A stretch of DNA of 63,231 nt, filler included, from Craspedostauros australis (taxonomy: Eukaryota), in NCBI GenBank assembly GCA_030167865.1. It is 14 parts of 14 records of this genome, joined end to end, with 100 filler letters (N's around TTAATTAATTAA, not from the genome) between each part and the next. Parts side by side here need not be neighbours in the genome. Positions count along the whole stretch, not along the records: positions 61,115 to 63,231 come from JALAGF010001086.1; 13 more parts are not named here. One strand, written 5' to 3'. A program made the position numbers and the translations under genes. Of the stretch, positions 13,732-63,231 are shown in pieces. The notes below the pieces were generated by a model, which saw only the letters and a list, made by a program, of their open reading frames with translations, ran no database searches and had not been told where the DNA came from. Every line of letters starts with the position of its first letter. The first letter of the stretch is position 1.

Positions 13732-13831
13732 NNNNNNNNNNNNNNNNNNNNNNNNNNNNNNNNNNNNNNNNNNNNTTAATTAATTAANNNNNNNNNNNNN
13801 NNNNNNNNNNNNNNNNNNNNNNNNNNNNNNN

Positions 13832-17178: not shown

Positions 17179-17327
17179 NNNNNNNNNNNNNNNNNNNNNN
17201 NNNNNNNNNNNNNNNNNNNNNNTTAATTAATTAANNNNNNNNNNNNNNNNNNNNNNNNNNNNNNNNNNNNNNNNNNNNGTTGGTGGGTGATGGAAACGTT
17301 GGATTTCAATCGTAACGTTTCGAAACG

Positions 17328-18082
17328 TGTTGGAAATCCGGGGTTAGGTAGTAGATTAATCTGTTATCAATCTGTACCAATTTAGAACTGTGAGAACAAA
17401 CTCCTTGACTCTTCAATTCCAATTCAGCAGCAAGTGTAATCCGTAGCAGTTCACCATGATCATGCACATGTCCATGGTTGCTTTCATCTGCTTCATCAGC
17501 TTGCTCTCATGCTCTCTTCTGCAGATTCATCATGCATCATCGTGGTGATTTGCATCTTCTACATTTGAGCAGCATCTCTCATAGACGCACAGGTACCTTC
17601 AGCATGGGTCTCAGTCTGATCGATCCCACTTGACCTTCGGTTCCTCAGCATTCCTCCTGCGCCATCATCACATACTCACCGGTCACGTTCATTCCATGTC
17701 GCCTCGTCAATCGTGCTCTTGAGCGGATAGGGGCATCGCTCCCGTTTCCCTTTCTCGGAGAAGCGATCCCTTGTCAGTCGATGCGCGTCGACATGTCTGG
17801 TACATATCGACAGTTTTGCCCATAGTCTTGGCTCATGTGCGATTACATCCCTAGAGGTTGATCCATAGGTTTGTCCTCATCACAGCGGTGGTACATGGAT
17901 AGGCTCCATGGTGGGACATGACTGATGTTGATGTCATTCATGAACAGAGAGTTGATGGGGGACAGGCTGCAAGGTGGTCCGAGTGTTACCAACAAAGTTG
18001 ACCTCGTCGAGTTGTGAAGATATTATTGGGAGGTGCGGCAATCATGGGTATCTTAGTAAAAGAGTACCCCCGATTCCTGACA
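17328..18082 (-). mobile_element. LTR family A, copy 1 (755 bp; probable 5' LTR with internal region toward 17279)
   Basis: TGTTGGAAATCCGG...CGATTCCTGACA termini; homologous to 24972-25445 and 48958-49714; no TSD here. Confidence 0.88.
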
Positions 18083-24971: not shown

Positions 24972-25445
24972 TATCAGACATGTCGACGCGCATCGACGGA
25001 CAAGGGATCGCTTCTCTGAGAAAGAGAAACGGAGGCGATGCCTCTATCCGCTCCAAAGCACGATCGACGACGTGACATGCGTTCATCATAACCAGCGTGT
25101 ATGCAATATCGGATCAGAAGGAATGCTGAGGAACCAAAGTCAAGTGGGATCGATCAGACTGAGACCCATGCTGAAGATACCTGCGCGTCTATGAGAGATG
25201 ATACTCGAATGTAGAAGATGCAAATCACCACGACGATGCGTGATGAACCTGCAGAGGAGAGCATGAGAGCAAGTTGATGAAGCAGATGAAAGCAACCATG
25301 GACATGTGCATGATCATGGTGAACTGCTACNNNTTACACTTGCTGCTGAATTGGAATTGAAGAGTCAAGGAGTTTGTTCTCACAGTTCTAAATTGGTACA
25401 GATTGATAACAGATTAATCTACTACCTAACCCCGGATTTCCAACA
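24972..25445 (+). mobile_element. LTR family A, copy 2 (partial, cut by contig start)
   Basis: Reverse-complement homolog of 17328-17800; ends CCCGGATTTCCAACA against a copia RT remnant. Confidence 0.9.
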
Positions 25446-25706
25446 ATGACCCTGAAGATTCTTACTGATGAGAGTCATGCAGCCACACGGAATGGGTGCG
25501 CGTCCCTACGACTGCCACCATTCAGCAAAGGGGCTGTCAACACGCATGTAGTACTTCTGTGCACCACAAGGAGCCTCAGAAAATGCATTGTGAATGTCAG
25601 CGCCATAGATGGTCTTGTTCTCCATGGTTGTGACAGCAATGAACAGCCAGAAATCCATAGCAGCCAGAGTAGCCGTGAATGTGTGCCCTGTGATTGTTGC
25701 CTTGCC
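25446..25706 (-). pseudogene. Degraded copia RT remnant sandwiched between two LTR insertions
   Basis: GHTFTA...IYGADIHNAFSEAP....YYMRVDSPFAEWW*...PIP....KNLQGH with an in-frame stop. Confidence 0.75.
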
Positions 25707-29104: not shown

Positions 29105-29377
29105 TGTCGAGATGTACATGTGAGTATATGTCGAGATGTACGAGTATATGTGCATCGTTCACCCGCTATTCTCTCATACGCACTTGGACGGTATAACTAC
29201 ATTCGTGTCNNNNNNNNNNNNNNNNNNNTCAGAATTACAGGGGAAACGGAACACACGAAAAGGGGCAAGATTTCTGGAGGAAATTTGCAAATGACGATTT
29301 CTAAGAGAATTGGAAGATCGTCCGTCCATCCATCAATGGTACCAAGAGAATCTCGAGGTACTTCCCAACTAAACCTC
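29105..29377 (+). mobile_element. LTR family B, 5' part (cut by contig end)
   Basis: Starts TGTCGAGATGTAC; closely similar to the reverse complement of 47269-47528. Confidence 0.85.
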
Positions 29378-37294: not shown

Positions 37295-38082
37295 TGAATT
37301 CCGTCGTTGATCTGTTTGCGCTCGAACGGAATAATGTTCTCAGAGCCCTTGCTCACGTGCGATTGCATGTGTCGCCGCTTCTACTGTCACTGCCGTTACC
37401 GTTGTTGTCATTGTCACCGTCGTATCTTCCTGACATGGCCATTCACGCATTGTTCATGATCGTCGCCACTTCTCTCGCGAGAAGATCACGCAACACCTCA
37501 TCGTTTCGTGGATTGCGTGATGATGGCTTTGGTTGCCTTTCTTCGGGCAAAAACTCATTGCCGCAGGCTTGTTCTTTTGTCGATGGTCTTCTGTGAATCG
37601 TGCAACAACAAACTCTTGTGACATGGTGTGTGAATTTGACGTTAAATTGCTTCGCATCTCAAACGTTCCACGACTGTTTCTTCCGGAGGGATCCAACAAC
37701 TTTTCTTCTTCAACCATATCAATATAACGTTCTGTTAACGCTCTATGATTGCGTCGAGAACGAACAACGCACTCACTTGTCAATATCCACGACTGGGGAG
37801 AATTCAAATTCAAATTCAAATTGATTTCACCAAAACAACAGAACAAAAAATGACACAACAACGACAACAAGCGAAGCTGGAAAAAAGGTGATTATCATCA
37901 TGAGGAGCAGAAGCAGCAGCACCACAGGAGCTTCGAAGACAACAACAACAACATCATATCAGTAGGAGTGTCAACATCAACATTGACATCAAAGATCGCA
38001 CCGCAATCCGACAGTCCAAACCGCATCTGCACCCCAACTCGCAGAGCCGACCAACAGTTCACGACCACGAGATCCCACAGCC

Positions 38083-39075: not shown

Positions 39076-40008
39076 TCACAGCAACGGCTGGGCCTCTCCA
39101 TGAACCACGATCAAGTCCTTCTGAGAAGAGTCTCGAGACGTGGTGTCGAAGCTGCTGTAGGATGTCGCCGCACCCAGAGTCTGCCGCATCTCTGGATTCG
39201 GATCCTGCGCACAGATTGCAGTCTCGCACCCGTGCTGCGTTGCGTTTGAAGTTTCTCGCCGCGGAATGTCTGTCATCCCCATCTCCAAAGATAGGTACCA
39301 TTCGGTCGTGAAGGTGGCGTGCAGAATGCCAAGCAGGAAGGCCCCAATGAGCATGTCGCTTGAAATTGCCTTGATCTGCTCGTCAGTCGCCTCTTCAGTG
39401 AGTGCAGGGAACAGGCCCGTCCATCCATACTTGTATGTGATGATGAAGGCCATGAGCCAGAAGCGCTGCAGGGTGAAGGCTTGGAGGTACCCGACCAACC
39501 GAATGGCCCAGAACTTGTGTCTTGGGATGTCCTTGTATACGGCAGCGTATCGCCATGCCATGTAGACGCAGTAGGACACGACGATGGCGTATACGACGGA
39601 GATGATCTTGATGAAAGCAGCATCGCTGGTGGAGGCCATTCCGCACCCAGTAGCGATCTCCACCACAACGACCACCATGAGGAATCTGCCGAGGTACCTG
39701 TGCATCCATGGGAACGTCTTGCGAATGTAAGGGATGAGCTGGAAGAAGTAGAGGTTCCACCAAAGGATGGCACAGATGATATGCGGGAAGAAGTAGATGT
39801 ACCTCCTCGGGCTGTAGCATGTGGGCGAGATGTTGGGGACGGCGGTGGAGTTGTAAAACGCACCATCGACTGGATGACTGCGGAGCTGTTCCAGGCTGTG
39901 CTTGGGGTCCCAGAAGCGGTAGCCCACGAGACGTCCCAACGAGACGAACCAGGAGACGAAGAAGAGTATCACCAGCCAGGAGATTACGTAGATGTCGCGT
40001 CCTCTCAT
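39076..40008 (-). CDS. DUF2306-like multi-pass membrane protein, paralog 1
   Basis: H...ILW....FQL...IRK....HRYLGR and I..HK.W..R motifs; about 6 hydrophobic segments. Confidence 0.85.
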   Translation of the reverse strand: MRGRDIYVISWLVILFFVSWFVSLGRLVGYRFWDPKHSLEQLRSHPVDGAFYNSTAVPNISPTCYSPRRYIYFFPHIICAILWWNLYFFQLIPYIRKTFPWMHRYLGRFLMVVVVVEIATGCGMASTSDAAFIKIISVVYAIVVSYCVYMAWRYAAVYKDIPRHKFWAIRLVGYLQAFTLQRFWLMAFIITYKYGWTGLFPALTEEATDEQIKAISSDMLIGAFLLGILHATFTTEWYLSLEMGMTDIPRRETSNATQHGCETAICAQDPNPEMRQTLGAATSYSSFDTTSRDSSQKDLIVVHGEAQPLL

Positions 40009-40760
40009 CTTGTTGCTGATGGGTGTGGTGGTTGGGTGCCTTAGTCACCTGTGATCTTGCTTTTTATGGTGCTCGGTGTGCAGCACTTTCTCCAAGCCAT
40101 GATGCTGCGACACTGCGATGATACGATGCTGCGATGCTGGGGTGCTGGACCCGTATTCGCAATGACACAGCAAAGTGCAGCCAAGGTCTCGCTCCGCAGG
40201 GAATGCGTGTGCCTGGCCCTGGCCGTTTCATTCCGTGGATGACTCGCGAAGTTACTCATTTCTCCCATCATTCACGATTTCGGTTCGTCGCTTCGGCCGA
40301 TTCGCGAAAGTTTCTCGTAACACAACCACATGCATGTTCGCCGGTACGTGTAAGCTACAGTGAGCCCCCCAGATCAGCATCTCCGACCAGCGTGCTTCAC
40401 TCAAATACAAACTCCGGAGAGAGGAATTGGGTGGGCAACACCGCTCCTGTGGCATCACCGCGTTCGCAGATCACACAAATCTTTCGAAACGAACCGTGCC
40501 TGTTGAGTGTGTGACACACGATCATCGAGAAGTTGAGAAATGAGCCTTTCGTGCAGCGCGAATGCGCAGATCTTACACGCATTGTGGTATGATGATCTAT
40601 TATATGTTTGGTAAACTAGAATGTAATAGCATAATTCTTGCGCATGGTGTCAGCGATGTTCGGACCAATTTGAATTCCATGGAATGTACTTGCATGGCTC
40701 TCCTCGCACAGATCCGATCTAGATCCTGCCATTGTCCCATCAGCATCGCGTCGATGGTTC

Positions 40761-41660
40761 TCACAGCAATGACTGCGCCTCGTCGCGACGCGGTTGCTGC
40801 GACGAAGCTTTCGCGTTGTCGCTGAAGCTGCTGTACGTCGTCGAACCTTGCGGGTTGCTGTCCGTGCCGATTGCTGATTGCTGCGTCGCAGGCGACGCCG
40901 ATGCTCCTGGCTGCACGACGTCGGACACCCCCATCTCCAAGGAGAGGTACCATTCGGTCGTGAGGATGGCATGGAGGATGCTGATGACGAAGGAATCATC
41001 GAACATGCGCAACACGAGGGTGCGGATGTCTTCGTCGCTGGTGTCGTCGGTGATGGCGGGATACAAGCCGGTCCATCCGCTCTGATGGCTGATGATGACG
41101 AACATCAACCAGAAGCGTTGCAAAGCAATGGTCTGCAGGTACCCCACCAGTCGCATCACCCAGAACTTGTGCCTTGGGATATCTTTGTAGATCGCAGCGT
41201 GACGCCATGCCTTGTAGACGCAGTAGAACACGGCGGCGGCAAAGATGCACGAAACGATCTTGATGATGGAGGAATGGCTCGTGACCGCCAATCCGAATCC
41301 ACTCCACGCCTGAATGAGGACGACGACCATCAGGAATCTTCCGAGATACCTGTGCGTGCTTCGGAACCTCTTTCGGATGGATGGGATGAGTTGGAAGAAG
41401 TAGAGGTTCCACCAAAGGATAGCGCAGACGACGTGCGGGAGGAAGTAGACATACCGTCTCTGCGTGAAGTAGGACTTTGAGATCTCGGTGGTCGCAGTGG
41501 AATTGTAAAAGAGTTCCTCCGTCGGGTGTTCCTCAGCCTTTTCCAGGTTGTATTTGGCATCCCAGAAGTGGAGGCCGATGAGGCGTCCCAACGCGACGAA
41601 CCAGGAGACGAAGAACAGCAGCACCAGCCATGAGATCACGTAAATGTCGCGTCCTCTCAT
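40761..41660 (-). CDS. DUF2306-like multi-pass membrane protein, paralog 2
   Basis: Tandem paralog: identical start MRGRDIYVISWLV and shared motifs through TTEWYLSLEMG. Confidence 0.85.
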   Translation of the reverse strand: MRGRDIYVISWLVLLFFVSWFVALGRLIGLHFWDAKYNLEKAEEHPTEELFYNSTATTEISKSYFTQRRYVYFLPHVVCAILWWNLYFFQLIPSIRKRFRSTHRYLGRFLMVVVLIQAWSGFGLAVTSHSSIIKIVSCIFAAAVFYCVYKAWRHAAIYKDIPRHKFWVMRLVGYLQTIALQRFWLMFVIISHQSGWTGLYPAITDDTSDEDIRTLVLRMFDDSFVISILHAILTTEWYLSLEMGVSDVVQPGASASPATQQSAIGTDSNPQGSTTYSSFSDNAKASSQQPRRDEAQSLL

Positions 41661-42702
41661 CTTGCTCGATCGATCGTTTGTGTTGTTGGCTTTGTTGCTG
41701 CGTGTATGTATGTGTGCGTGCGTGTGCGTGCGTGGTGGCTTGGTTGCGTGATGGCTTGGTTGTGTTTACTTTTGCTTCTGTTGTTTTTGCGAGCGTGCGG
41801 CGACAACTTCCTGAGTGGTGGACTCTTTGCTCTCCTCACTCATCCGTCAAAGTTGCGATTGGAACTTCTCCTTCGTTCCACTTTGGAATCGAATAGAATG
41901 GCAGAGCAGAGCATGAACGATGCTGGGACATGATGATCATTTCATGACATTCAATGATGTGCAACAAGGAAGTCGTCCGGGTCTCGATTGCAGTCGGCAT
42001 CAGCTTCCGTCATCATCGCCTTGTTCCGCGATGGAACATCAGGGATGTTGTTCATTTTGTGCGTTGAACGCAAACAGGAGGCGGAGAAGAGTTTGTTCCA
42101 GGTTGTTCCTGTGGCGCGAAGTGCATGTTTTGCTTCGATCCGCGTCATCCCACATCACAGGTATTGACATGACGTGGCGTCATCTTGGTCGTTTTGTTCT
42201 CCATCTTTTTCTCTAGACTTGCATCATAAGCTATACTTTGCATGTGTGTCTGATAAAATGGGTGTTAACTGACCGACCAGACTATTGCACAGCCAATGTT
42301 TGAAATCAGTGGGAGTTGCGGTGATGAAATAAAATTTGACAAGACACTGAGCCCAAACAAGAACGAATACGCAAAAATCGTGCCATTCGCGACAAAGAAA
42401 AACAAGAGACATCACCACCACCATCGCAATCACAATCACGATCACAACCACCATCAAAGATCCATTTGCAGCCCGCGGTGTGCTTCAGCAACAACAAAGT
42501 TAGGGGAGCAATTCTTTGGTGACTCCAATCAATCCAATCGAAATCAATCCAACCCAATCCAATCGAACCCAACCACACTGGTGCAGAGGCGGCAACGGAA
42601 GTAGCAGCAACAGATCCACGACAGTGCTTAGTTGAGGCTTGAGAGACGCGGGACCGATTGGGCGATACTGGTAGAGAAGTGGTCCGTTCATCAACATCCG
42701 CC

Positions 42703-45085
42703 ATGGATCCATCTATGGCGTCTGCACCGGCTTCGGCATCAGCGGCTGCGCCAAAGATCGAGAAACGAAACAAGGCAACATCGTTGGCAGCGAAAAGCGG
42801 AGGATCCGATGCACCAATAACAGACGGAGACAGATATCGAAACAATGTCTATGCATTCATGTTCATCGCGGTGTGCGCCTTTTTCCTCGGGCTCACCACC
42901 TTCCGTGCGGCTCCCATCATCTTCAACCCGGCACAGCTCATTGGAGATGACTTTCCTGACATACAATCGAATGACGATGGGACGACGACGACAACGACCA
43001 CAACGACGACAGCGGTAGATTCGCAAGCAGCTAAAGCATCGCCGTTGTCACCATCGATGTCATTCCAAAGGACATGGGTGGATAGCGACGAGGAAGAGTC
43101 CGAGGGTCCAAAGAAGCCGCTCAACATTCTCTTCCTCTACGCCGATGATTGGAGCTTCACGTCCCTCGGGGCTCTCGGCAACGATTACATCCAAACGCCC
43201 CGGCTGGATGAGATGGCACGGAATGGCACCCTCTTCACACACGCCTGCGTCACAACCTCCATCTGCATGGTCAGCCGTGCATCCATGTACACTGGTCAAT
43301 ACGCTGCAAAACATCGGACTTACAGGAGCTGGAAGGACCTCCACATGTACGACGATGACAACTGGAACTACACGGTGTTCCCGCAGCTCAAGCAGGCCGG
43401 CTACTACACCGGTCTCTTCGGCAAGTACCATCACACCAAGCCACCAAAGCAGATACCAACATTCGACAAATACGTCTCCTACCAGTTTGGCCACTACAAG
43501 ACGCGGGATGGGGTCACGAAGCACATCACGGAATGGAACGAAATCGACGGTATGGGATTTTTGAAAGAGAGGCCGAAGGACCAGCCCTTCGCGCTCACGG
43601 TGGCTTTCTTCGCGACGCACGCCGAGGACGGCAGCCAGGAGCAGTACCGCCCCATGAACAGCAGCATGTGGATGTATGCCAATTCGGAGGTACCCCGTGC
43701 CAAGACCTTCACACACAACCACACTTTCAGGATGCCGCATTTCATTTCCAGCAGTCGCAACTACGGCCGTGGCCGATCGCTGAAGCGATACTATCCGGAG
43801 AGCAAGTACCAGCTCATGATGAAGAACACCTACCGGATGGCAAGCGAAGTCGATGCCGCATGCGGCCGTCTCATCGACGAGCTTGAACGGCAGGGCGTGC
43901 TGAATGAAACTCTGGTGGTGTTCACAACAGGTGCGTGCAGGACAATTCTCGTTCGAATACAGTCGCATGCTGGCATGCCGTGGTTGATGATGGATCGTGG
44001 AGACGAAGAATGACACCGGATAGTCGGGCTGGAAGGATCGATGAATCTACAGACAGTGCTCTTTAGTGAGCAGCACAATTGTCGTCTGTTTTCGACTTTA
44101 TTTCGCACATCTCACTTCGTCTTTTTGCCTTTGCCTTTGCGTCATCATCATCATCATCTTCTTCTTCTCCGTCTGATCGTACGACTTCATCTTCCAATCA
44201 CAATCGCAATCTCGACTCCACAGACAATGGCAATTTCCACGGTGAGTTGTGGCTGACTCCGCACTGCTCCACGTAGTGTGCTCTCGTGAAGGATGCAATC
44301 GCGAGCAGCACCATGCTTCATACCCACGATTGATTAGAATTCACGCATGTGTTTCCACCACCGCAAATCTTTTGGATGCAATCGAATTGATTTGGATTGG
44401 ATTGAATTGATCATTAAGTCGAGGCACAACTCCTGGCATGTTTCGTTCGTCATCGTGCCAACGCCGTATGCTTGGATGCTTCTTGTGCTCACATTCACAC
44501 TCACGCTTCACCCCTCGCCCTGCCTCTCTTTACCTTGCCATATCTTCTCTTACCCGTGTCTGTTGTATGTTTCGCAACTGAGCAGGCCAGCATGGTTTGG
44601 CTGAGAAGTGGTACGCCTACGAAGAATCGCTGCGAGTCCCATTGATCATAATGGACCCACGTTTGAAGAAAACCAAGCGCGGCGGCAAAGTATCCGAATT
44701 CGCCCTCAACATCGACCTGGCACCCACGATGCTCGCGGCCGCAAAAGTCGACGTCCCCCAGCAGATGCAAGGTCGAGACTTGGCAAACCTCTACCTGAAT
44801 CCAGAGGAAGCCAAGAAATCGTGGCGACAGGAGTTCTTTTACGAGTGGATCGGAGATATGACCGACTTACCATCAAACAATGCTCTCGTTCGAAAGGACA
44901 AGAAGTATATCCAATGGCCGCAATGGACCACGGAACAGCTGTTCGACCTGGAGGCAGATCCGTATGAGGAGATGGATCTGAACGACGAAAAATACAGGAA
45001 CAACGCCAACAGCGCAATCATGGATGAAATGAGGACCCGCATGCTGGAGCTCCAACAGCTGGCCATCGCAGGAGCGAAGATGTAG
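42703..45085 (+). CDS. Formylglycine-dependent (S1) sulfatase with N-terminal TM anchor, 3 exons (42703-43930, 44224-44241, 44586-45085)
   Basis: NILFLYADD, TP.LD..A..G..F..A, signature ICMVSRASMYTGQY, GYYTG.FGKYH; spliced VFTT|DNGNFH|GQHGLAEKW..YEESLRVPLI; NIDLAPT; EQLFDL..DPYE; canonical GT-AG junctions. Confidence 0.95.
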
Positions 45086-46633: not shown

Positions 46634-47268
46634 TTGTTGTTGTTAAGTTATTGTTGTATTCAATTGATGATTGATGAGATTTGTGAGAACAAGATCTCAT
46701 TCATCCTAAGTTGATGCATTATGCATCATTTCTACTATCTTGCCCGATTCTACTGTTGTTCATCATCGGGTCTTCCTACTATTCTGCTCGATGTCGCCGT
46801 GGTCCATCGTGCATGATTCCTACTTTGTTGCCCAAGGTTGCTGGCTGCTTTGCGCAGTATCCCGTGTTATCTCTCCTCTTGGGTCTTTATTCATCTCTGT
46901 CTGAGCCTGCCTAGTCTTGGACTCTCTTGGTGTCCATATATCTCAGCCTGTCGATGTCAGCAGATTGCTTGCATCATCCCTGACATCATATGACTATCTC
47001 CTAATTGTTGTTACCACGTGCTCACTGATGCACCTGGCGTCACTAGACAAGTCAGCATAACATGACTATCACTTATTCTTGATCCCTCGGACCTCAGTGA
47101 CGGTCCTCTGATGTCAGTCTCTGATGTCAGTTCCTACATCAGTTCTGATGACAGCAGGACCCGAACACCATTCGCATCATCAAGACTCATCCGACTATAC
47201 TATCAATCGAGTCGAATCACGTTTCAGTCATGTGAGATGTTAGCCTAAATTCGATCTAGATGTTGACA
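46634..47268 (-). mobile_element. LTR family C, copy 1 (635 bp visible)
   Basis: Appears identical to 61115-61749; homology ends exactly at ...GATGTTGACA, with different flanks. Confidence 0.9.
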
Positions 47269-47528
47269 TTTCGCTTGGTACCATGGGTTCCATTGATGGA
47301 TGGACGGACGATGTTCCTGATACTCTCAGAAATCGTTATTTGCAGATTTCCTCCAGAAATCCTGCTCATTTTCGTGTGTTCCATTTGTGGTGTGATTTTG
47401 CCAAATCACAGTTCACTACGACACGAATGTAGTTGTACCGTCCGTACGTGAGTATAAGAGAATAACGGGTGAACGATGCACATACAGATACGTACATCTT
47501 GACATATACACGCATGTACATCTCAACA
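47269..47528 (-). mobile_element. LTR family B, 5' part, inserted in copia pol and itself interrupted by LTR C
   Basis: Reverse complement starts TGTTGAGATGTAC and aligns with 29105-29350. Confidence 0.85.
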
Positions 47529-48459
47529 CTCGACACCAGATCCTACATCGTTGAATTCCCTGATGGTGTGGAGAAAGAATACACCGCAAACATCATCGCT
47601 CAGAACATGTACGCCCAATGTGACCAGGACGGAAATCAGCTGCTGCTGATGGATGACATCATCAACTACAAGAAGGAGGCATCGGCGATTTGTGAAGCCG
47701 ATGGGTATGCCATGATCGGTGGGAGACGGCATCGGCGACGCACGACGCGAGGTTGGAAGCTATGTATCCAATGGAAGGACGGGACAACCACGTGGGAACG
47801 CCTGGCCGACCTGAAAGAATCCAATCCGATCGAGGTGGCTGAATATGCAATCGCACAGGGCATCGCGAATGAGCCAGCATTTGCATGGTGGATTCCATAC
47901 ACCATTCGAAAGCGGAACATCATCATCGCGAAGGTCAACAAGCGGCAACTCAAGAAGACACACAAGTTCGGCATTGAGGTTCCTCGAACGGTCGAGGAAG
48001 CATTGGCGCTTGATCGGAAGAATGGCAATACCCTGTGGAAGGATGCCATCGCGAAGGAGATGAAGAATGTCAGAATTGCTTTCCAAGTCTTGGAACAAGA
48101 CGAGGAGGTGCCGAAAGGGTACCAATTCATGAAATGTCACATCATCTTCGACGTGAAAATGGATTCCTTTCAACGGAAAGCTCGGCTGGTAGCCGGGGGA
48201 CACATGGTGGACACACCAGCAGCGATGACATACTCCAGTGTGGTATCAAGGGAGAGTGTACGGATTGCGTTGACGATTGCTGCACTCCACGATCTGGAGG
48301 TTCAGGCAGGGGACATTCAGAATGCGTACCTCACTGCACTGTGCAAGGAGAAGGTGCGAACAATATGCGGACCGGAATTCGGAGCTCTACAAGGGAGGCA
48401 TGCACTTATCGTGAGGGCGTTGTATGGATTGCCAAGCGCTGGGGCGAGCTTCCGGAACC

Positions 48460-48667
48460 TATTAGAGCACTATCGTAAAAAATCACGAGGGGTGAGCAAA
48501 AGCAAAGTACCATGCCGGGATTCGAACCCGGAACCTCAGTGAGAATTACTGGTGCTCTACCGTTGAGCTACAGGCGATGCGATTGCTGAACCGAACACAA
48601 GTGAAATTTACAGATAGTGGGGGCTACGGGAGTAACGTACTTAGCACTATACGGATTTGTGCTGATA
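48460..48667 (-). mobile_element. 208-bp non-coding insertion with an internal tRNA-like cassette and 5-bp TSD (GAACC)
   Basis: TSD at 48455-48459 and 48668-48672; the empty site restores GASFRNHLADC; termini TATTAGAGCAC / GTGCTGATA. Confidence 0.93.
48507..48577 (-). ncRNA. tRNA-like sequence (pseudo-tRNA; nominal anticodon TTC, non-canonical loop)
   Basis: D arm GCTC-AACGGTA-GAGC, anticodon arm CAGT-AATTCTC-ACTG, T arm CCGGG-TTCGAAT-CCCGG; intact A and B boxes; poorly paired acceptor stem and no U33; T-runs downstream. Confidence 0.8.
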
Positions 48668-48957: not shown

Positions 48958-49714
48958 TGTTGGAAATCCGGGGTAATGGTAGTAGACTAATCTGTTATCA
49001 ATCTGTACCGTTTTAGAACTGTGAGAACAAACTCCTTGACTCTCTTCAATTCCAATTCAACAGCAAGTGTAATCCATAGCAGATCACCATGATCATGCAC
49101 TTGTTCATGGTTGCTTTCATCTGCTTCATCACCTTGCTCTCATGCTCTCTCCTGCAGATTCGTCATGCATTATCGTGGTAGTTTGCACCTTCATCATTCG
49201 AGCAGCATCTCTCATAGACGCACAGATACCTTCAGCATGGGTCTCAGCCTGATCGATCCCACATGATCCTCAGTTCTTCAGTATTCCTCCTGCGCTATCA
49301 TCACATACTCACCGGTCATGTTCATTGCATGTCGCGTCGTCATTCGTGCTCTTGAGCGGATAGGGGGATCGCTTCCGTTTCTCTTTCTCAAAGAAGCAAT
49401 CCCTTGTCCCTCAATGCGCGTCGACATGTCTAGTATATATCGACGGTGTCGCCCATAGTCTTGGCTCATGTGCGAATACATCCCTAGTGGTCGAACCATA
49501 GGTTCGCCCTCATTTCAGTGGTGGTACATGGATAGGCTCCATGGCGGGACATGACTGATGTTGATGTCATTCATGGACAGAGGAGTAAAGGGGGACAAGC
49601 TACAAGGTAGTCCGAGTGTGATCAACAATGTTGATTCCATTGAGTCGTGAAAATATTATTGGGAGGTGCGGCAATCATGGGTATCTTGGTAAAAGCGTTC
49701 CCTGATTCCTGACA
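48958..49714 (-). mobile_element. LTR family A solo LTR (757 bp) with 6-bp TSD CGCTGT
   Basis: TG...CA termini; TSD at 48952-48957 and 49715-49720; the empty site restores AWSLSSSKYAQEA. Confidence 0.93.
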
Positions 49715-52857: not shown

Positions 52858-55800
52858 TCAGATGTCGCTTGGGCGCAGCTCGTAGCTTTCTTCATCAGAG
52901 TCAGAGTCGTAATTGGATTCCGCTTCGTCGTATTCATAGGATTGGGCGTCCGGTTCTTCATCGAACTTCTCGGGCTCGATCAGCGAGCCATTCTCCCATT
53001 TGCCAGACCTCATCAGGCTGCCATCAGCTCTGTACTCGGTCCCATGCCCGTGCCGGACACCATTCTTCCAGGCACCAACGTACTTGCCTCCGTTCGGCCA
53101 CGTCAGTGTGCCCTGACCCTCGATTTGATCCTTGCGGAAGTCGCCGACGTAAACAAGCGCGGAGTTGCCGAATCGGTACGTGCCGTTGGAACCGTGACGC
53201 ACGCCGTGGGCGAACTTGCCTGAGTAAGTGGATCCATCCTCGTACATCATGGTGCCCTCCAGCTTCACATTCTTCTCGAACAGACCTTCGAAGCGACGGC
53301 CGTCAGGAAAGTCCAACGTCCCGTGTCCGTTCTTCATGTTTTGAGAGAAGAAACCCTTGTACGTCGCACCGCTCCAGTAGCAGCTCTGCCCGAAGCCATT
53401 CTTGACGCCATGGACGAACTGCCCCTTGTACCACCGCAGTTGAAAATCGTGGTTCTTCGCTAGGTCCTTCAAGTGCTTCGGATTTCGCTTCTGCTGTGAT
53501 GGTCGGTCGAGGTACTGGAGCTTGCCGTGTCCGCATGGTTTGCCGCTCTCCTCGGACAGCATGCCCGAATACTTCATCCGAAGGCCGGTCTCGTCGTCGT
53601 CATATTCCATGTCATTCACCATGATCCTGTCATCGTCCAGATCCTGCGGTTCGATGGGGCGTTGCATGATGTCGAGAGAAAGCAGGAGAGTCTTGGATTC
53701 CAGCTCCTGCTGACCCTCCGGCAACGATCCCATGGCGCTCCAGCTGCGCTCCGTGCAGGATCGGTTCGTCCGTTCCGTCCTCTGCGATGGGCTGGTCGGG
53801 ACGAACTGATCTCCGCGCAGATTCAATGAGACGCTTCGTGTGGTGTGCTCCGTCTCCTCGTAGTGGAGGGAGAAGTAGCTCGAATCAACTGAGCACTGCG
53901 ACGCGCAATTGTCATCGTCATCGGTATTGTCGTCGTCATTGTTGTTGGCATCATGTTTGCCGTGAGCACTTCGAAGACCATCATAATCATCATCATCGAC
54001 GTCGTCATCGTTGACTTCGCTATCGCTCTCCTCCTGATCGTTGATGGTCTCGTCTTCGTCTGAATCTTGCATCACCTCGTGCCGAGGAGACATGTCGGCG
54101 CCAGGCGATCCGTCTACGCGACCTGTATCACCGAGATCATCGCGGCTGAGATCATGACAGTCTTCATCCTTTTCGCAATCCTCATGCTGGTACTTTGACA
54201 AATTCAGTTCGTACTCATCCTGCGAATCTTTCATCATGACGATGAATCGGTCCAGGGACAGCGAGGTGGTTCTGCTGCCATCGTTCAAGGATTCGACGTC
54301 CGAAAATGATGCATCTGCGAGCGCTTTGAAGACATCATCGCAATCACGCATGCTGGCGTGTTGGATGACTTGGAACAGGTAGGTGTGAGAGAGGTCACAC
54401 TCCAGCTGCTTCCGATGCCGTTGGAATCTTCGAGTACCCTCATCGCGGCCACCGCTACTCTTCGCCTTCGGCTTGCTTTCTGACACTTGAGAATTTGCTC
54501 CCAATTCCTTCAACGACGATTCGACGTGATCTTGGATTTCTTTCAAGATCGAGGGGGGCTGTTCCTCCGAATCGCGATCATCCTCCACTGAGCCATTCAG
54601 GCCGATCGCTCTTGACGATGTGGACTTTTTGCGCTGTCGCGTTTCCGAACGCCCTTTCCTTTCTTCCTTTCTGCTCATGTGCTTCGTCATCTTCATGTCG
54701 TTCTTTTCCGACGTCTGCGACTGTCGTCGGCGTTGCTGTTCGGCGGCGTCCTCTTTGTCCACCTTTTTCCCGTCGTGTTGCTGACCCTTCGACTTCTGCG
54801 TGTGTTCGGCTGAGACCGCACGCGCGAGGCGCTCGTTGAGTGCCTGCAGCAGGACGAGCAGTTCATTCTTGCTGACGGCGTTCACATTCTCGCCGTCCTT
54901 CGTGTCTGCGCCAAGGTCGCCAATCTCGTCGTTGCTCTTTGCCATGTGCGCAGCAAGACCAATCGATGTGCCTTCGGCTTTCGCAGCGACGGCATTTTGC
55001 AACTGGAAGATCGAGCTTTCCGAGTTGGATCGATGCCTTGCATAGACGCGTCTGCGCAGATCAAGCAGCGAACCCTGCCCTGGCAAGCCCCTGGCATTCG
55101 TCCTGTGCAGGCTTGTGCCGAGATTGCTGGATGATGGGCCAGCCATGGAGTCCATCGACGCTCGTCTGGGAATCCTTCGACGCGACAACGATGAAGATCT
55201 CGACCGTTGCTGCTGCTGCTGTGGTTGGCGCTGCTGCGATCGCGATCTTGTTGGAAACGGCGCTCTTCGGAACCTGGGCTGATGCGGGCTTTGCTGTGTG
55301 AAGAGGGAGTTGACTCGCTTGAGATCCGCCAACGAGCCTTCCGAATTGGACCGCTTGATCGGAGCCAGAGGCATGTCCGCCTCATTCTTGTTTCTGTCTG
55401 ACACATTCGCGGGTGACGAGGAAGTGAAGGATTGGAAGGCAGGCGGTGCTCCTGATGTGGTGGTGGTATTGATGGTGTCCATGGAGGAACGTCGTGGGCG
55501 TCGATGCTGGCGCCGTGCCTTGGAGGAGTGCGAGCTGCTTCTTCCGATTGGCTGCTGTTGATGCTGCTTTTGTGGCTGTTCTGACTGCTGTTGCCGCCCG
55601 GTGCTTGCTTCGTCGCGCTTGTGAGAAGCAGAGGGCATCAAGCTTCTTGTCGAGGCGGCCATCTTTGTCGACGTGTGTTGCATGCGGCGTCGGCTGTGCG
55701 ATGATCTGTCGACCTCCTCCTTGGTGAGATCGTCGCTGCTGTTGCTGCGTTGAACCGAAGGCTCTGTTGTGGACGCCTTGTCATCGGTGGTTGCGGTCTT

Positions 55801-58005
55801 TGATGATCGGTTCCGGAATGATGATTGTATTTTGTGGAGCGGTGATCGACGGTGATCCGCATGGCGAGGCCCATCAAGTTTTTCATTGTTGGCAGCGTGA
55901 TGCTGTTGCTCGTTGTTGGTGGAGTGGATGGTATTGCGGCCAGTGGGCGCCTTGGGGCTTTTGGATGGAAGTCTGCTGCTGCGACGCGGTGGCCGTTGAT
56001 CGATGATGGTGGATTCATTGCTGTCATGGAGCTTGTCGTCATGCTTGGCTGCCGTTCGGTTGTCTCTACGTCGCTGGGTTTGGCGAGGCGAAGGTTGCAA
56101 GTGACTTGACAAGGTGAGGTCGTTGCGACTGCCCGACGATACGTGCAGACTCTGCGACAAGGAGTCGTTGCTCTTGCGGCGCCTGGCTCTGTTGGTGGAT
56201 TGATGGCTGCTGTGCGCCTGCAGCCTGTCGTTGCGCGTTCGGGAGCCTCTCGATCGTGACCTTGGCGGATTCTGAGTGGAGTTCTTTCGCTGATGCGACC
56301 GATCCGGCGTCTGCGATTGCGCTGGCGACGGCGACGGTTGCTGTTGCTGTTTCTTTTGCAAGTAGCGCTGGTCTACCGGTGATATTGGAACAGAAGTGGA
56401 GGCCTTGCTGGCCTCGTCGCTCGCCTCCGGCACAAGACCCAGCCAGCTCTCGGATTGCTCATGAACCAGCCTTCGACGCGGCAGGCCCGATGACAGCGTC
56501 GAGACGGTGGAGGCCATCGACGGATGGGATTGGTTGGGATCAAACTCGGAGGAGCTGGACAGCACCGTCTTCGCCGTCGCCTTGCTGAGATTGCCGATCG
56601 ACTGCTGACGGATCATGGGCTTCGTTGCCTGAACGTGTTCATCGTTGCTAGCATCGGCTGTTGATGTTGATGCCGATGGCTGGTCCTTGCGTTGCGCATG
56701 CGGGCGCCTCCTCGCCGAACCCGATCGTTTGCGCGATCTGGAGCTGGATCGCTGCTTGGCCCGTCGACGACCGGCACTGCGCCTGGAATCAAGCGAAGAC
56801 GGACGTTTGTGGACACCCTCGTTGGTGCTGGAATCCTGATCTTCGCCGTTGCTGTTGCTGCTGCCGTTGCTGCTGGAAAGCTTGCGTCGCCTCGATGATG
56901 CTGACAGCGTCGACGATTGGCGCTGGGGTCTGGGGTCCGATCCTGATCTGTTCCTTCTGTGACGGGCACCACTGACTTCCGACTGCTGCGTCCTGCTGCT
57001 GTCGCCATTCCCCTTCTGGTTCTGACTCTCGTGTTCCGTGCCACCATCACCATCCATCCCATCGTCATCAAGTGCGCTTTCCATGCTGCCCATGCTGCTC
57101 ATGCTGCGCTCGACTGTGTCGTCCACTGTGTCGTCGGCTGTATCGCCCTCACCCAAACGTTCGGAGGATGCTGTCGTGCCCAAGGTTGCAAAGGACTCAT
57201 CTCCGAAGGACGAATTGAAGGAGGTCCACGTATCGCCGCTGGCCACCGATTGGTGGTAGTTGGCCGAGTCCTTGCTGCTGCCTCTGTGAGTGGCACTAGG
57301 AGCCATGCCTCTTTTCTCGTTTGTGCTGCGCTGGCCGTCCTTTTCTCTGCCTCTGCCTCTACCCCTGCCTCTGCTTCGATCTCTGCCATTGTGGTTGTCC
57401 TTCTGGGATTGCTTGTTCGCTCTTGCATCGGTCTCACCGTCAACGTTAACGTTAAGGTCAACGTTAACATGAACGCCAACCCGATCATGCTGATGCTGGT
57501 CTTCCTCCCCCTGCTCTTGCTCCAGATCCAGATCGACAGTTCTGAATGACTGAGAGCGCATGAGATCGCGCTTCGAAGGCGCCAGCTTGATCAACTTGGG
57601 TCTCGCGCCGCGTTCCGCCTTGCCGTCACTCCCTTGGGTGCCATGGTTGCCACCATCATCAGCATTGCCATTGAGCTTGTCAGTGGCCGACGACCTGCGC
57701 TCCCTCGGCTTGCCATGGCCGGAGGAACCAGGAAGGCACTTCATGGAGACCCGACCGATGGAGGACCCGATTGCCCTCGCGCTGGTGCTGATGCTGGCAT
57801 TGCTCTGCTTCACCTGCATCGTGGGAATGCCCTGCGTTGCCTGAACGCCCTTTTGTCTGCTATTGGTGGCAGTGGTGTCTCCTGCCATGAGCGATCTGCT
57901 GCCTGACGGTCTCTTTGTGCTGCTGTTGCCGTCCTTGCCGTTCATGGAGGAACGACGCGCCAGGAAGCGGTTGGATGGCGGCTTCAGCTCGCGCACTTCC
58001 ATCAT
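52858..58005 (-). CDS. Very large intrinsically disordered protein with C-terminal MORN repeats
   Basis: About 1715-aa ORF; about 7-8 Y.G.F..G..HG.G units near the C-terminus; S/R/Q-rich N-terminal 1400 aa. Confidence 0.88.
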   Translation of the reverse strand: MMEVRELKPPSNRFLARRSSMNGKDGNSSTKRPSGSRSLMAGDTTATNSRQKGVQATQGIPTMQVKQSNASISTSARAIGSSIGRVSMKCLPGSSGHGKPRERRSSATDKLNGNADDGGNHGTQGSDGKAERGARPKLIKLAPSKRDLMRSQSFRTVDLDLEQEQGEEDQHQHDRVGVHVNVDLNVNVDGETDARANKQSQKDNHNGRDRSRGRGRGRGREKDGQRSTNEKRGMAPSATHRGSSKDSANYHQSVASGDTWTSFNSSFGDESFATLGTTASSERLGEGDTADDTVDDTVERSMSSMGSMESALDDDGMDGDGGTEHESQNQKGNGDSSRTQQSEVSGARHRRNRSGSDPRPQRQSSTLSASSRRRKLSSSNGSSNSNGEDQDSSTNEGVHKRPSSLDSRRSAGRRRAKQRSSSRSRKRSGSARRRPHAQRKDQPSASTSTADASNDEHVQATKPMIRQQSIGNLSKATAKTVLSSSSEFDPNQSHPSMASTVSTLSSGLPRRRLVHEQSESWLGLVPEASDEASKASTSVPISPVDQRYLQKKQQQQPSPSPAQSQTPDRSHQRKNSTQNPPRSRSRGSRTRNDRLQAHSSHQSTNRARRRKSNDSLSQSLHVSSGSRNDLTLSSHLQPSPRQTQRRRDNRTAAKHDDKLHDSNESTIIDQRPPRRSSRLPSKSPKAPTGRNTIHSTNNEQQHHAANNEKLDGPRHADHRRSPLHKIQSSFRNRSSKTATTDDKASTTEPSVQRSNSSDDLTKEEVDRSSHSRRRMQHTSTKMAASTRSLMPSASHKRDEASTGRQQQSEQPQKQHQQQPIGRSSSHSSKARRQHRRPRRSSMDTINTTTTSGAPPAFQSFTSSSPANVSDRNKNEADMPLAPIKRSNSEGSLADLKRVNSLFTQQSPHQPRFRRAPFPTRSRSQQRQPQQQQQRSRSSSLSRRRIPRRASMDSMAGPSSSNLGTSLHRTNARGLPGQGSLLDLRRRVYARHRSNSESSIFQLQNAVAAKAEGTSIGLAAHMAKSNDEIGDLGADTKDGENVNAVSKNELLVLLQALNERLARAVSAEHTQKSKGQQHDGKKVDKEDAAEQQRRRQSQTSEKNDMKMTKHMSRKEERKGRSETRQRKKSTSSRAIGLNGSVEDDRDSEEQPPSILKEIQDHVESSLKELGANSQVSESKPKAKSSGGRDEGTRRFQRHRKQLECDLSHTYLFQVIQHASMRDCDDVFKALADASFSDVESLNDGSRTTSLSLDRFIVMMKDSQDEYELNLSKYQHEDCEKDEDCHDLSRDDLGDTGRVDGSPGADMSPRHEVMQDSDEDETINDQEESDSEVNDDDVDDDDYDGLRSAHGKHDANNNDDDNTDDDDNCASQCSVDSSYFSLHYEETEHTTRSVSLNLRGDQFVPTSPSQRTERTNRSCTERSWSAMGSLPEGQQELESKTLLLSLDIMQRPIEPQDLDDDRIMVNDMEYDDDETGLRMKYSGMLSEESGKPCGHGKLQYLDRPSQQKRNPKHLKDLAKNHDFQLRWYKGQFVHGVKNGFGQSCYWSGATYKGFFSQNMKNGHGTLDFPDGRRFEGLFEKNVKLEGTMMYEDGSTYSGKFAHGVRHGSNGTYRFGNSALVYVGDFRKDQIEGQGTLTWPNGGKYVGAWKNGVRHGHGTEYRADGSLMRSGKWENGSLIEPEKFDEEPDAQSYEYDEAESNYDSDSDEESYELRPSDI

Positions 58006-59468
58006 CGTGGTGGGCTCAGCCAGAGTATTACTATTCACTCTCTCACACACACACACTCTCTCTCTCTCTCTCTATTGGTGGTTGTATGTTGTGCACAAAC
58101 ACTTCCTGAGTGCAACTATCTCTATTGCCTCTTGTCTATTTTCTCTTGTCTATTGCTTCTTGTCTCTTGTCGCTATTTGTGCACAACGCAACTTGGTCCA
58201 GCTCAGACAAGAATGGAAAGAGCTGGGCAAGAAAGTGCTTCGACTTTCTTCCCTTCGTGTCTGTGCCTGTGTGGATGCGATGATCGTTCCCCTTGGATTT
58301 TGTCTCTCGTTTTCGTTGCGTGTTTTGAGTGATCTTTCGCGCCAACACTGTGACTTTGTTGCGACAGCGTGCTCGGAGCGTTTGGCGTTGCTGCGAATCA
58401 TCCTCGTCGCTCGGATGCGAGTATTCGTGGAATCCTCCGCAATTCTTCCACTACCCAAGCGCGCTGCCATGATTCTCAACGACGGAGACCGTTGGATCTC
58501 GTCGTGAGCGCATGGAGCAAGGGGAGCATAAGCCAGACATTTAAACGGTTTGTCGTCTGAATGCGGCCCACTGTTCGCTCAGGGCGCAACATGACAAGCC
58601 CAATCGAAACGAGGTTACTGCGCGGGGCACAAACAACCGCAACCAAAGCGATCTCAACAGGTGTTCGATGTCTGCGCATGGTTTCTGAATGTTCGTCAAC
58701 CGTTTCGCAGCCGGCATAAATAAACAGGTTGGGCGCACACTTTTTGATGACAACGGACGAAGGCGAGAAGCATCTATCCATTGGTCGTGAAATTTCAGCT
58801 TAAGCCTCGAGTGAATTTCGAGTCGCCGCACTACCACTGGATGGCACGGTGGTCACAAACTGGACGACGAGCGTGTCCGCGAAGCCAGCTCGTGTGTGTT
58901 GAAGGTTGACCGTGTTTGACACAATCCAAAAACATCAATGAGATCGTGAACACCGCATCAAGCAATTGTGTGATGACCATCTTCGTGAGATCAGTCATAT
59001 GAGTCGTACGAATCTCTCGCGATGTCCAGAAATGACGACGAAGCTCGCACGACTACTTTTGCGGGACTGGAAGAAGGCCTCCCTGTCGCTCCACAAAATC
59101 GCACGAAACGGTAACATCGACGTCGTTGCGATTGAACAGGATCGTTGCAGAACAAGAGGCAGGGATCATGCCGGTGCCAACAGGGTGTGGAACCATCTCA
59201 GCCTCGTCACAGGGTCTGATCATGTCGGCGATGCGACGGGTGCGAGAGAGAGAGAGAGATCAACTGGAGTCAAGTTCATGCACGTCCCTGGAGTCTCAAG
59301 CATGTGCTCTCTGCTATGTACGAGCCACGATCTATGTTATACCCTGTGTTCTCTATGCAACTGTGTCGCTGTGCATGGCTGCGTATCGCTCACATTGCTC
59401 TGCGGGTGGAGCCTCTACACCAGGGGGCACGTATAGTACACGTACAGTACACGAATAGGACACGCATT

Positions 59469-61114: not shown

Positions 61115-61749
61115 TTGTTGTTGTTAAGTTATTGTTGTATTCAATTGATGATTGATGAGATTTGTGAGAACAAGATCTCATTCATCCTAAGTTGATGCAT
61201 TATGCATCATTTCTACTATCTTGCCCGATTCTACTGTTGTTCATCATCGGGTCTTCCTACTATTCTGCTCGATGTCGCCGTGGTCCATCGTGCATGATTC
61301 CTACTTTGTTGCCCAAGGTTGCTGGCTGCTTTGCGCAGTATCCCGTGTTATCTCTCCTCTTGGGTCTTTATTCATCTCTGTCTGAGCCTGCCTAGTCTTG
61401 GACTCTCTTGGTGTCCATATATCTCAGCCTGTCGATGTCAGCAGATTGCTTGCATCATCCCTGACATCATATGACTATCTCCTAATTGTTGTTACCACGT
61501 GCTCACTGATGCACCTGGCGTCACTAGACAAGTCAGCATAACATGACTATCACTTATTCTTGATCCCTCGGACCTCAGTGACGGTCCTCTGATGTCAGTC
61601 TCTGATGTCAGTTCCTACATCAGTTCTGATGACAGCAGGACCCGAACACCATTCGCATCATCAAGACTCATCCGACTATACTATCAATCGAGTCGAATCA
61701 CGTTTCAGTCATGTGAGATGTTAGCCTAAATTCGATCTAGATGTTGACA
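61115..61749 (-). mobile_element. LTR family C, copy 2
   Basis: Appears identical to 46634-47268. Confidence 0.9.
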
Positions 61750-62058
61750 AGTAAATGAACGGAGTGTCGAATGCGGAGTACGCATCGAGCACAGAATGAC
61801 GCACGGAGTAAACACGTGCTATTGAGAGAGAGAGAGAATGAGTAAGAGCAAGAGAGCATCTCGCGTACCGACTCATAGTCGGGAACGTTTCGGATTAAAC
61901 CAATCTGTGAAGAGACAGACGCGCCGAGAGCATCGGGAAAGACTACGGAGACACCGAGAGGATCAGAGTGCTTCAACTAATGAAATAGCAAACAGAGAAA
62001 CAGCAACCACCACCGTCTTACACGTTCGTAGGCTATCCAACATCGGGACACGCCAACA
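61750..62058 (+). mobile_element. LTR family B, 3' part of a 5' LTR
   Basis: Aligns with about 26230-26500 (GA tract, ACTCATAGTCGG, AATGAAATAGCAAAC, CAACCACCACCGTC); ends GCCAACA upstream of gag. Confidence 0.8.
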
Positions 62059-62137
62059 CGTTTATAAACGATAGATCAGGGCGAGCCCGTGGATCAGATC
62101 GTGCGGAGACGACACGTTCAGGAGAGCAGCAGGCTGA

Positions 62138-62845
62138 ATGAGCGAGGAAGAGGAATTGAAAGACATCCCTCTGTCCACCCCGGCTATCAAGCAAGAAGAA
62201 GGTGCGAGTGCGACTCGACCTCAACCACAGAAGGAAGTGGGTGCGCCCACTGTCCTGTCTAGCGCAGAAGCAGGCGCAATCGACGAGACCGAAGAGGTAC
62301 GGTCTGCGAGACTACGGCGAGAGCAGAAGAGCATTCTCAAGAGCGTCAAACAAGAGGAGACTGGTGTGGCGAAGAGCATTCGCACGGCCAAACAGGGTGT
62401 AGAAAGTGAGACACCATCAGGAGGAGAAATTGTGACGAAAACAATCTCCGCGCAATTACAAGCAGAAATCGAAAAAGTGGTCACACGAAAACAAGCAGAA
62501 ACAAGGAGCGTGCGCGCACCACCAACGAAACAACGAATCAAGATGGCGACGCCAGCCAACACGAACAAGCGATGCATCAAGGCGCCGATGTTCAGCAGTG
62601 ACCAAGAAGACTATAACGCATGGGAGTCCCAGGCAAGAGCGTACGCGCGTACGCAGAAGACACGAGACGTGATGTTGGGCAAGACGAAGATCCCAACAGT
62701 AAGTGAGATCGAGGCAGCCGCCAACGACGACAAGGAAGAGATGGAAGAGATTCATGACCTGGCAGCCGACTGTTTCAGCGATCTAATTCTCATGATGGAT
62801 GCAGAGAAAGGAAAGGGCAAGCAAGCCATCCAATACATCAACCAA
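62138..62845 (+). mobile_element. Copia gag N-terminus, interrupted by an insertion
   Basis: PMFS.DQEDY.AW.SQ..AYA...K..DV.LG...IP...CFSDLIL.M copia Gag pattern downstream of LTR B. Confidence 0.8.
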
Positions 62846-63231
62846 TGTGATAATCAGCAATTCAATACAGGACAGGCACCAAACACTGCACTTACTCCTC
62901 CGCCAGGGTGATCAATCCGTCAGGTGAAGTTGGTGTGTTTGGTGATAGTTGTTGCTAAGTTATGGTTGTATTCAATTGATGATTGGGTTTGGATTATGAG
63001 ATGATGATCTCCTATTTCTAAAGATGGTGCCTATTGCACGGTTGCTAACGCGCTGCTCGATTACCTCGTGGTTTCTCTCGCAGTCTTTTCTAAAACATTG
63101 CCCAAGATGGCATGTTGATTTACACGATATCCCGTGTTATTCTTGCTCTTGGGTCTTTCTTCATCTCTCCTGGTCTTGCCTAATCTTGATCTCTGTTTGA
63201 TCACATATGGATTGATCCGTCTACGTCGACG
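62846..63231 (-). mobile_element. LTR related to family C (diverged), inserted in gag; runs off the window
   Basis: Starts TGTGA at the gag break; from about 62948 aligns with 46634 onward (GTTG.TAAGTTAT.GTTGTATTCAATTGATGATTG, TTGCCCAAG, TATCCCGTGTTAT, CTCTTGGGTCTTT). Confidence 0.75.

Follow-up and report, generated by a model that had tools for sequence, protein, structure and literature searches.

A perfect palindrome, conserved in symmetry but not in sequence, at the primer-site position of a Copia clade in the diatom Craspedostauros australis

When long terminal repeat (LTR) elements replicate, a primer of whatever kind has to anneal no further than a few bases from the LTR end. LTR elements and retroviruses are defined in part by their choice of primer, for which surveys distinguish three kinds; in the survey of Neumann et al. 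(2019, PMC6317226) the primer-binding site (PBS) of a full tRNA has TGG within 0–5 nt of the LTR and matches the tRNA 3' end over at least 12 nt. In Tf1, RNase H (RH) cuts an RNA duplex and thereby frees the primer (PMC7175516), and self-priming of this type has been proposed for plant Tcn1 and TAR/Houba elements (PMC7175516, PMC6317226). Palindromes have another role in Ty1, the RNA of which dimerises via PAL1 and PAL2 (PMC6844567). The closest described system is that of the fungal GalEa elements (Donnart et al. 2017, PMC5445492), which have no tRNA PBS and carry a 10-bp palindrome—counting the last A—at the 5' LTR end, with a larger stem predicted around the LTR junction in five of eight elements; these authors note that the palindrome resembles a dimer initiation site (DIS) and that no model fits. 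Here we describe a stretch of 63,231 nucleotides from the diatom Craspedostauros australis (assembly GCA_030167865.1; hereafter the window), in which two LTR retrotransposon families of the Ty1/copia type, A and B, have a perfect 12-bp palindrome at the position of a PBS. The palindrome is real and clade-wide, and, as far as the incomplete set of tRNAs compared shows, is not explained by any known primer type; on balance we favour the interpretation that it serves as the minus-strand primer site in a Copia clade whose elements provide their own primer in trans, via paired genomic RNAs.

The window consists of contigs joined by linkers of 44 N, TTAATTAATTAA and 44 N; the repeated 12-bp TTAATTAATTAA palindromes are thus linker and not biology, and the family A and family B sites are not genome neighbours. 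A scan of the whole window finds CGTTT-NN-AAACG at two sites, one in family A and one in family B (Table 1). Palindromes of 12 bases are by themselves common in the window, and the case therefore rests on recurrence and position. A sequence-only reading had placed both palindromes directly after CCAACA, that of family B just upstream of gag, and the sites do read this way; both lie flush with 5' LTR ends and upstream of gag. The family A palindrome is 14 bp long (17315–17328) if the flanking A, which is the last LTR base, and T are counted. The family A flank (17279–17327) had been taken as internal to the element from about 50 bp and from the absence of a target-site duplication, and this is borne out: it is 100% identical over 61 nt to the copy L067 and continues into gag and pol in L064, L067, L073 and L074, and is thus not host DNA. 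The window copy of family B is a dead 1.1-kb fragment (61750–62847) between two minus-strand LTRs of another family, E, one of which has removed the 5' part of its LTR; complete family B LTRs are about 770–800 bp long (768 bp in L014) and start with TGTCGAG. Its gag N-terminus is that of the gag-pol open reading frames (ORFs) of L068, L069 and L071, and PF14223 matches are found on family B copies.

The genome searched comprises 65.9 Mb in 6734 contigs. The pattern CAACA-CGTTT-NN-AAACG matches it 132 times, versus none for a reversed control, and among the 100 matches listed of these 132 the centre dinucleotide is AT in 56, CG in 43 and TA in one, so that all are self-complementary; without the LTR end, the 12-mer frame is found at 24 genome sites, nine of which have a self-complementary centre. 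The matches represent four LTR families—A (CG centre), B and C (AT) and D (TA)—and the expectation that other full-length copies would have the palindrome, with the centre changing and self-complementarity kept, is thus realised in many copies. Among the 100 family A LTR ends listed of 347, the following sequence is the palindrome or a decayed form of it in 12 and an unrelated flank in 88 (two duplicated pairs excepted), which shows that the family A LTR ends in CCAACA and that the palindrome is its sole recurring successor. In other family A copies gag begins about 90–110 nt past the palindrome, followed by protease (PR), integrase (IN), reverse transcriptase (RT) and RH; the RTs of families A and B are 50% identical.

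When all 12 bases are left free, the palindrome is perfect in family B at 63 of 90 junctions and in family A at 39 of 43. Of the 27 imperfect family B junctions, 22 are altered solely by CpG-type transitions, and bases 3–10 are intact in 87 of the 90. Inner variants with positions 4 and 9 altered are not enriched in this genome (50 matches, versus 76 for the control). A G12>A change, seen in 19 of 90 family B and none of 43 family A copies, was considered as a signature of mirror-image mutation and rejected: G>A in a CGA context is raised along the whole family B junction region (80 of 453), and the excess is thus ordinary decay. Across 27 copies of this region, G>A is about twice as frequent in the CGA context as in other CpG contexts, on that strand only.

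Relatives were collected by means of an alignment of 25 database polyproteins, scanned against genome contigs and metagenomes. The sample comprises 86 loci, eight from genome contigs and 78 retained from 483 metagenome stretches. The eight are Copia contigs within records of bacterial metagenome-assembled genomes (MAGs) and are probably eukaryotic contamination; public databases list Copia contigs and proteins of eukaryotes under bacterial MAGs (L278–L285; P0123, P0188–P0191). A gag-only protein search gave no scoring match, a seven-row gag alignment had no stretch conserved enough for scanning, and two protein scans of IMG/VR gave no relative; a DNA pattern search of IMG/VR gave 102 matches that were discarded as chance, since their centres are mixed (22 of 102 self-complementary) and no Copia protein lies nearby. 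The elements have the order Gag, PR, IN, RT, RH with copia-type RT and Gag (ORFs of L064 and L068), their LTRs have the ends TGT...ACA, and the relatives carry PF14223, PF22936, PF25597 and PF07727, with a profile match to the Drosophila copia capsid (8vvw, E 9.7e-11). A polypurine tract (PPT), GGAAGGG, lies flush with TGT in 56 of the 86 loci and in families A and B, and the plus-strand side is therefore ordinary. In families A and B the Gag knuckles are separated from the protease by an insert of several hundred residues (L064 5500–6500, L068 5000–6200); it is missing in most relatives, and that of family A holds a CxxC...CxxC motif.

The gag start is included in 56 of the 86 loci, and in 49 of these (A/G)ACA is followed immediately by a perfect palindrome of 10 or 12 bases with CG at both ends, against a mean of 0.53 and a maximum of three when the upstream sequence is shuffled. 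The remaining seven are four decayed loci (L323, L326, L328, L354), two that are cut short by the start of their contigs (L296, L304) and the distant element L278; the last of these, in a 461-kb contig from a bacterial MAG record with a related pol, has a different 14-bp palindrome (6775–6790) some 280 nt ahead of gag, and no LTR pair could be detected there. The ACA boundary is fixed by comparison of 5' and 3' LTRs in L292, L345 and L362. After near-identical junctions were merged and nine from the C. australis genome added, 49 distinct junctions remained, which fall into 13 variants of the pattern CG-H-T-W-N-N-W-A-D-CG or a 10-mer; none of the 49 departs from the CG ends, T4/A9 or the upstream ACA. 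Symmetry is kept while the sequence changes. Sister elements differ symmetrically (L295 and L351, for example), and a quick RT tree of 45 rows (identity 33–98%, median 53%; seven rows without a perfect palindrome left out) requires a minimum of seven double-sided changes in pair 3–10, six in pair 5–8 and nine in the central pair, at least 22 in all, with two changes of palindrome length. Among the 35 distinct 12-mer rows, both-sided changes occupy 34 cells and one-sided changes none; these rows were selected as perfect, so that only the pattern of change counts, and the unbiased figure is the 49 of 56. The palindrome is extended by a T at +1 in 28 of the 49 junctions. In L292, L298, L309, L362, L300 and L306 there is a second CG-bounded palindrome of 10–16 bp, which overlaps the last CG of the first.

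The sequences on either side of the palindrome are predicted to pair. The last 35 nt of the unique 5' region of the LTR (U5) form a duplex with the 40 nt behind the palindrome with a mean predicted energy of −17.2 kcal/mol, compared with −11.2 kcal/mol for swapped partners; the best of 10,000 permutations reaches only −13.1 kcal/mol, and 32 of 48 junctions beat their own shuffles by two standard deviations. This predicted U5:leader stem mostly closes about 4 nt to the left and 7–11 nt to the right of the palindrome, which would thus sit in its loop. The PBS in U5:leader structures of other elements lies in such a loop. G-U pairs make up 102 of 905 pairs in the stems and none in the palindromes, so ordinary RNA stems of the same junctions tolerate G-U. 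A second self-complementary 4-mer (GATC, GTAC or GGCC) at +4 to +7 is seen in 18 of 49 junctions (5.4 expected), and in nine of 35 after 14 close rows are dropped (3.7 expected; P 0.005, uncorrected for the nine positions), and is a weak lead only.

From the position, zero spacer, perfect symmetry, covariation, flanking stem and ordinary PPT, and from the missing signature of each of the three known primer kinds (for tRNA, among the 51 genes compared), all as read from sequence, we infer dimer formation, a cut, the nuclease responsible and use as a primer, as follows. Each of the two genomic RNAs in a particle would present its palindrome in the loop of the U5:leader stem, and the two would pair antiparallel through it, with 10–12 Watson-Crick pairs. 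One RNA would then be cut just 3' of the last G of the palindrome, putatively by the RH of the RT, by analogy to Tf1. As this G would be paired to the partner's first C, flush with the end of U5, RT could begin at once to copy the ...CAACA of the partner. Later the plus strand would copy the primer and pair with the template site as copied into the minus strand, which is why, under this proposal, the site must be self-complementary at both steps; the strict Watson-Crick symmetry would follow, since a G-U pair in RNA would become an A-C mismatch in the DNA-DNA step. The PPT flush with TGT matches a zero-spacer primer at the other end. The sequence-only claim that the palindrome takes the place of the PBS stands for its position; a replacement in function is putative.

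Several points weigh against this account. The tRNAs compared, 51 distinct genes (50 fetched; 63 of 1301 candidates scored), form an incomplete set in which many are organellar, and in it nuclear tRNA-Ile(AAT) matches family B (with an I-A pair) and nuclear tRNA-Arg(TCG) matches family A (with a G-U pair) over 8 bp of the anticodon arm, both in one register. No exact match was found to an inverted U5-palindrome-U5 relic, near matches being ordinary family A leaders, and mirror-image mutations, a predicted trace of priming by a partner, were not found in family A or B copies. The stem of family A has only 7 bp, with 22–43 of 47 swapped partners scoring better, and the junction's own U5:leader partner is the best one in only 14 of 48 cases. 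Recognition by a protein could instead be what keeps C1, G2 and T4 and their partners invariant, and the proposal gives no account of why the plus strand should stop after the palindrome alone of a long primer.

The tRNA matches lend support to a host RNA as primer, the likeliest being half of a tRNA cleaved within the anticodon stem, as in copia and Bianca, with the palindrome serving dimerisation or packaging. They place the primer end at position 40 with a 1-nt spacer, the invariant T4 and A9 would face A38 and U33 in the best register, and priming by half of tRNA-Ile has been published for Bianca (PMC6317226). We nevertheless think a host primer unlikely, if worth keeping in view. The 31:39 pair is impossible for all 13 variants in every register, so that bases 10–12 are never explained; the best register would demand U37 of five variants (10 of 49 junctions) and fails at U33 for both 10-mers (another 10 of 49), such that 20 of the 49 break the U33 or the purine-37 rule. 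Every symmetric change would require a switch to a different tRNA, in each of the four genome families the self-duplex is predicted to exceed the best anticodon-arm duplex in stability, and none of the 15 non-LTR copies of the motif that were fetched lies within a tRNA gene. As for a full tRNA, TGG is absent, all 49 junctions beginning with CG, and no 12-nt complement occurs among the 51 tRNAs of the incomplete set, with which pairing from the LTR end extends over at most 9 nt, wobbles included; to this extent the motif is, as the earlier reading supposed, without a host tRNA complement. Several of the tRNA genes come in pairs, one member with T and the other with C in the D loop (GGTAGA versus GGCAGA; L033, L042, L043–L045, L081–L100).

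Self-priming of the Tf1 type, in which the transcript's own start (R region) anneals to the site, is a known mechanism and has been proposed for plant TAR Copia elements, but it would not require a palindrome, and we consider it very improbable here: in 30 of 30 complete LTRs the longest complement is 4–8 nt (6 nt in the window LTR of family A, 5 nt in a family B LTR), so that none reaches 9 nt or the usual threshold of 10 nt, and it is no better than in shuffled sequences (5.48 versus 5.79). A downstream complement of the fungal type, of at least 8 nt, is present in none of 44 leaders of 60 nt (mean longest 4.41, versus 4.34 shuffled). The palindrome might also fold back in cis as a hairpin of 3–4 bp, with the RNA cut behind it and the 3' G priming on its own U5; this needs no partner for the first step, neighbouring pairs can lengthen the hairpin in predicted monomer folds, and a T at +1 is common. 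We give it little credence, because loop bases 5–8 cannot pair in cis and yet covary 15 times, because bare hairpins are predicted at 0 to −2.6 kcal/mol, with none for CGTTTAAACG, against −10 to −20.7 kcal/mol for the self-duplex, and because a cut in cis would presumably leave the template without a site for second-strand transfer. The central bases covary (AT, CG, TA) where a hairpin loop could not pair them, and a second strand is therefore needed; of the hairpin and the RNA dimer, both suggested by the sequence-only reading, it is the dimer that is favoured. With tRNA, Tf1-type, downstream-complement and hairpin options set aside, pairing of the site with another copy of itself would be what is left, and as antisense RNA would not require symmetry the partner should be a sense RNA. 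It is, finally, doubtful that the symmetry is read by a protein (Gag, RT or integrase, with a two-fold site on an RNA duplex or DNA) or serves only second-strand transfer, with priming by other means, for instance a random nick or the hydroxyl of a protein. The CG ends, T4/A9 and upstream ACA, unchanged in 49 of 49 junctions, are what a recognised site would have; three of the six pairs, however, vary freely as long as they are complementary, and the length is 10 or 12, which base pairing fits better, and the alignment of 25 proteins has no additional conserved domain.

With fungal GalEa (PMC5445492) the clade shares a palindrome directly after the 5' LTR in place of the PBS, and the family B spacer ATAGATCAG has the form of the fungal CHSeq2. 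CHSeq2, however, is a downstream 9-mer complementary to the palindrome with one mismatch, and no leader here has such a complement; ATAGATCAG itself is not complementary to the palindrome. The fungal RT and RH motifs KSRLVI, DITQAY, QTDD and CQPEA are also replaced by RARLVA, DVETAF, YVDD and SRPDI. On these two grounds, the motifs and the missing complement, the palindrome clade is not a member of fungal GalEa, although it probably works in the same way. Fungal GalEa has two main palindrome forms, whereas here the palindrome is 10 or 12 bp long, lies outside the LTR, has CG ends and takes 13 covarying forms; as the two fungal forms track GC content their change may be mutational, and the 13 forms are stronger evidence for selection on symmetry. 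Metazoan GalEa has a PBS, TGGTAGCAGAGC, not found here, and its RH has SDAS where that of the clade reads SDSDxAGD.

As in Tf1 and sushi (PMC7175516, PMC6317226), priming would do without a tRNA, the primer would come from element RNA after a cut in an RNA duplex, and a U5 stem structure would be involved, the last for Tf1 according to the title of a reference cited there. As in the half-tRNA-primed copia, Osser, Bryco and Bianca (PMC6317226), the elements are Ty1/copia, with a site flush with the LTR and a partial likeness to an anticodon arm over 8 bp, possibly an ancestral state, although this is speculation; perfect symmetry of even length and free compensatory change are, however, impossible for an anticodon arm. 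A self-complementary stretch is shared with Ty1 PAL and the retroviral DIS (PMC6844567, PMC5445492), with RNA joining predicted here, but those exist beside an ordinary tRNA PBS, whereas the clade has its palindrome where a PBS would lie, with no other primer site present. Like the diatom CoDi6 elements (Maumus et al. 2009, PMC2806351), those of the clade are Ty1/copia near the main Copia lineage and have tandem CCHC knuckles (two CxxCxxxGHxxxxC in A, B and relatives), a trait not unique to CoDi6; the 90% cluster of the best RT match includes a protein of the diatom Licmophora paradoxa, and the Atlas cluster closest to one gene of the window consists mostly of Bacillariophyta, which is a lead only. 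The main text of Maumus et al. makes no mention of primer sites, the accessible portions of PMC6934838 and PMC6238403 hold nothing on the palindrome motif, and no paper describing the motif or priming by a partner was found in a search that lay outside most subscription journals, Repbase and GyDB.

Table 1. Coordinates of palindrome junctions and associated LTR features in the window
Feature	Position	Strand	Basis or remark
Family B palindrome CGTTTATAAACG, preceded directly by GCCAACA, no spacer after LTR end	62059..62070	+	Primer-site position
Family B 5' LTR, 3' part, end CCAACA	61750..62058	+	70% identity to L068 3' LTR over 61750–62056
Predicted U5:leader stem, U5 arm, family B	62024..62055	+	Duplex −26.1 kcal/mol with own leader, beats all 47 swapped partners
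Family B loop spacer ATAGATCAG, containing weak second self-complementary 4-mer GATC (62074–62077)	62071..62079	+	
Predicted U5:leader stem, leader arm, family B	62079..62108	+	Duplex score and fold
Family B gag, 5' part, broken at 62848 by another LTR	62138..62847	+	ORF
Family A palindrome CGTTTCGAAACG, directly after TTCCAACA	17316..17327	−	
Family A 5' LTR, 755 bp, TGTCAGG...TTCCAACA	17328..18082	−	Boundary from both L064 LTRs and unrelated flanks
Predicted family A U5 stem arm GGATTTC	17339–17333	−	
Family A leader start, reaching contig end	17279..17315	−	Identical to L067
Predicted family A leader stem arm GAAATCC	17307–17301	−	7-bp stem, weak
Family A LTR (3' or solo), 5' part lost at contig end, unrelated sequence after	24972..25446	+	Internal LTR-end control
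Family A LTR (3' or solo), unrelated sequence after	48958..49714	−	
Family E LTR (TGTCAACATC...TATCA), inserted in family B LTR, not part of B element	61115..61749	−	
Second family E LTR, 3' end, inserted in family B gag	62848..63231	−	

Family E LTRs are about 740 bp long, and a third window copy lies at 46634–47268, like the other two on the minus strand. Two of the window copies, both at contig ends, share 635 bp with 100% identity, possibly by assembly duplication, and in L369 a family E LTR is found inside a B-like LTR with a 5-bp duplication; the internal part and primer site of family E were not found. A distant Copia RT, 30% identical to that of the palindrome clade, is encoded at 27325–29196 (minus strand) and has many genome copies of 93–99% identity, so that it has been recently active; as a control this clade (27328–29196) gave no clear 5' LTR junction in 14 contigs. 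Further Copia pol fragments, with Pol_BBD and RVT_2 matches, are present at 11577–15307 (minus strand) and 47466–48542. The window also contains a 12-bp tandem array in an open frame (10614–11524), a 20-bp tandem array (15462–15681) and host genes at 52858–58071 (minus strand), 39248–41664, 42643–44013 and 36020–37339, which are, respectively, a 1737-aa frame with MORN repeats, a DUF2306 tandem pair, a sulfatase and a SASA-family esterase.

A wide and abundant Copia clade, with at least 132 junction copies in this genome and 483 metagenome stretches, thus appears to fit none of the three primer kinds. A palindrome in place of a PBS is already in print for another Copia clade; priming by a partner RNA, if confirmed, would be a new mode. 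The palindrome rule is a simple annotation aid for elements that tools call 'no PBS', and the 13 natural variants, which show which bases may change and how, make the question raised by fungal GalEa, that of the palindrome's role, open to test. We put at about even the chance of the wider consequence: that pairing with a partner adds a fourth mode of initiating LTR reverse transcription to the whole tRNA, the half tRNA and Tf1-type self-priming in cis. In this mode dimerisation and priming would be one event, the site would be symmetrised in each cycle, and the palindromes of fungal GalEa would be convergent.
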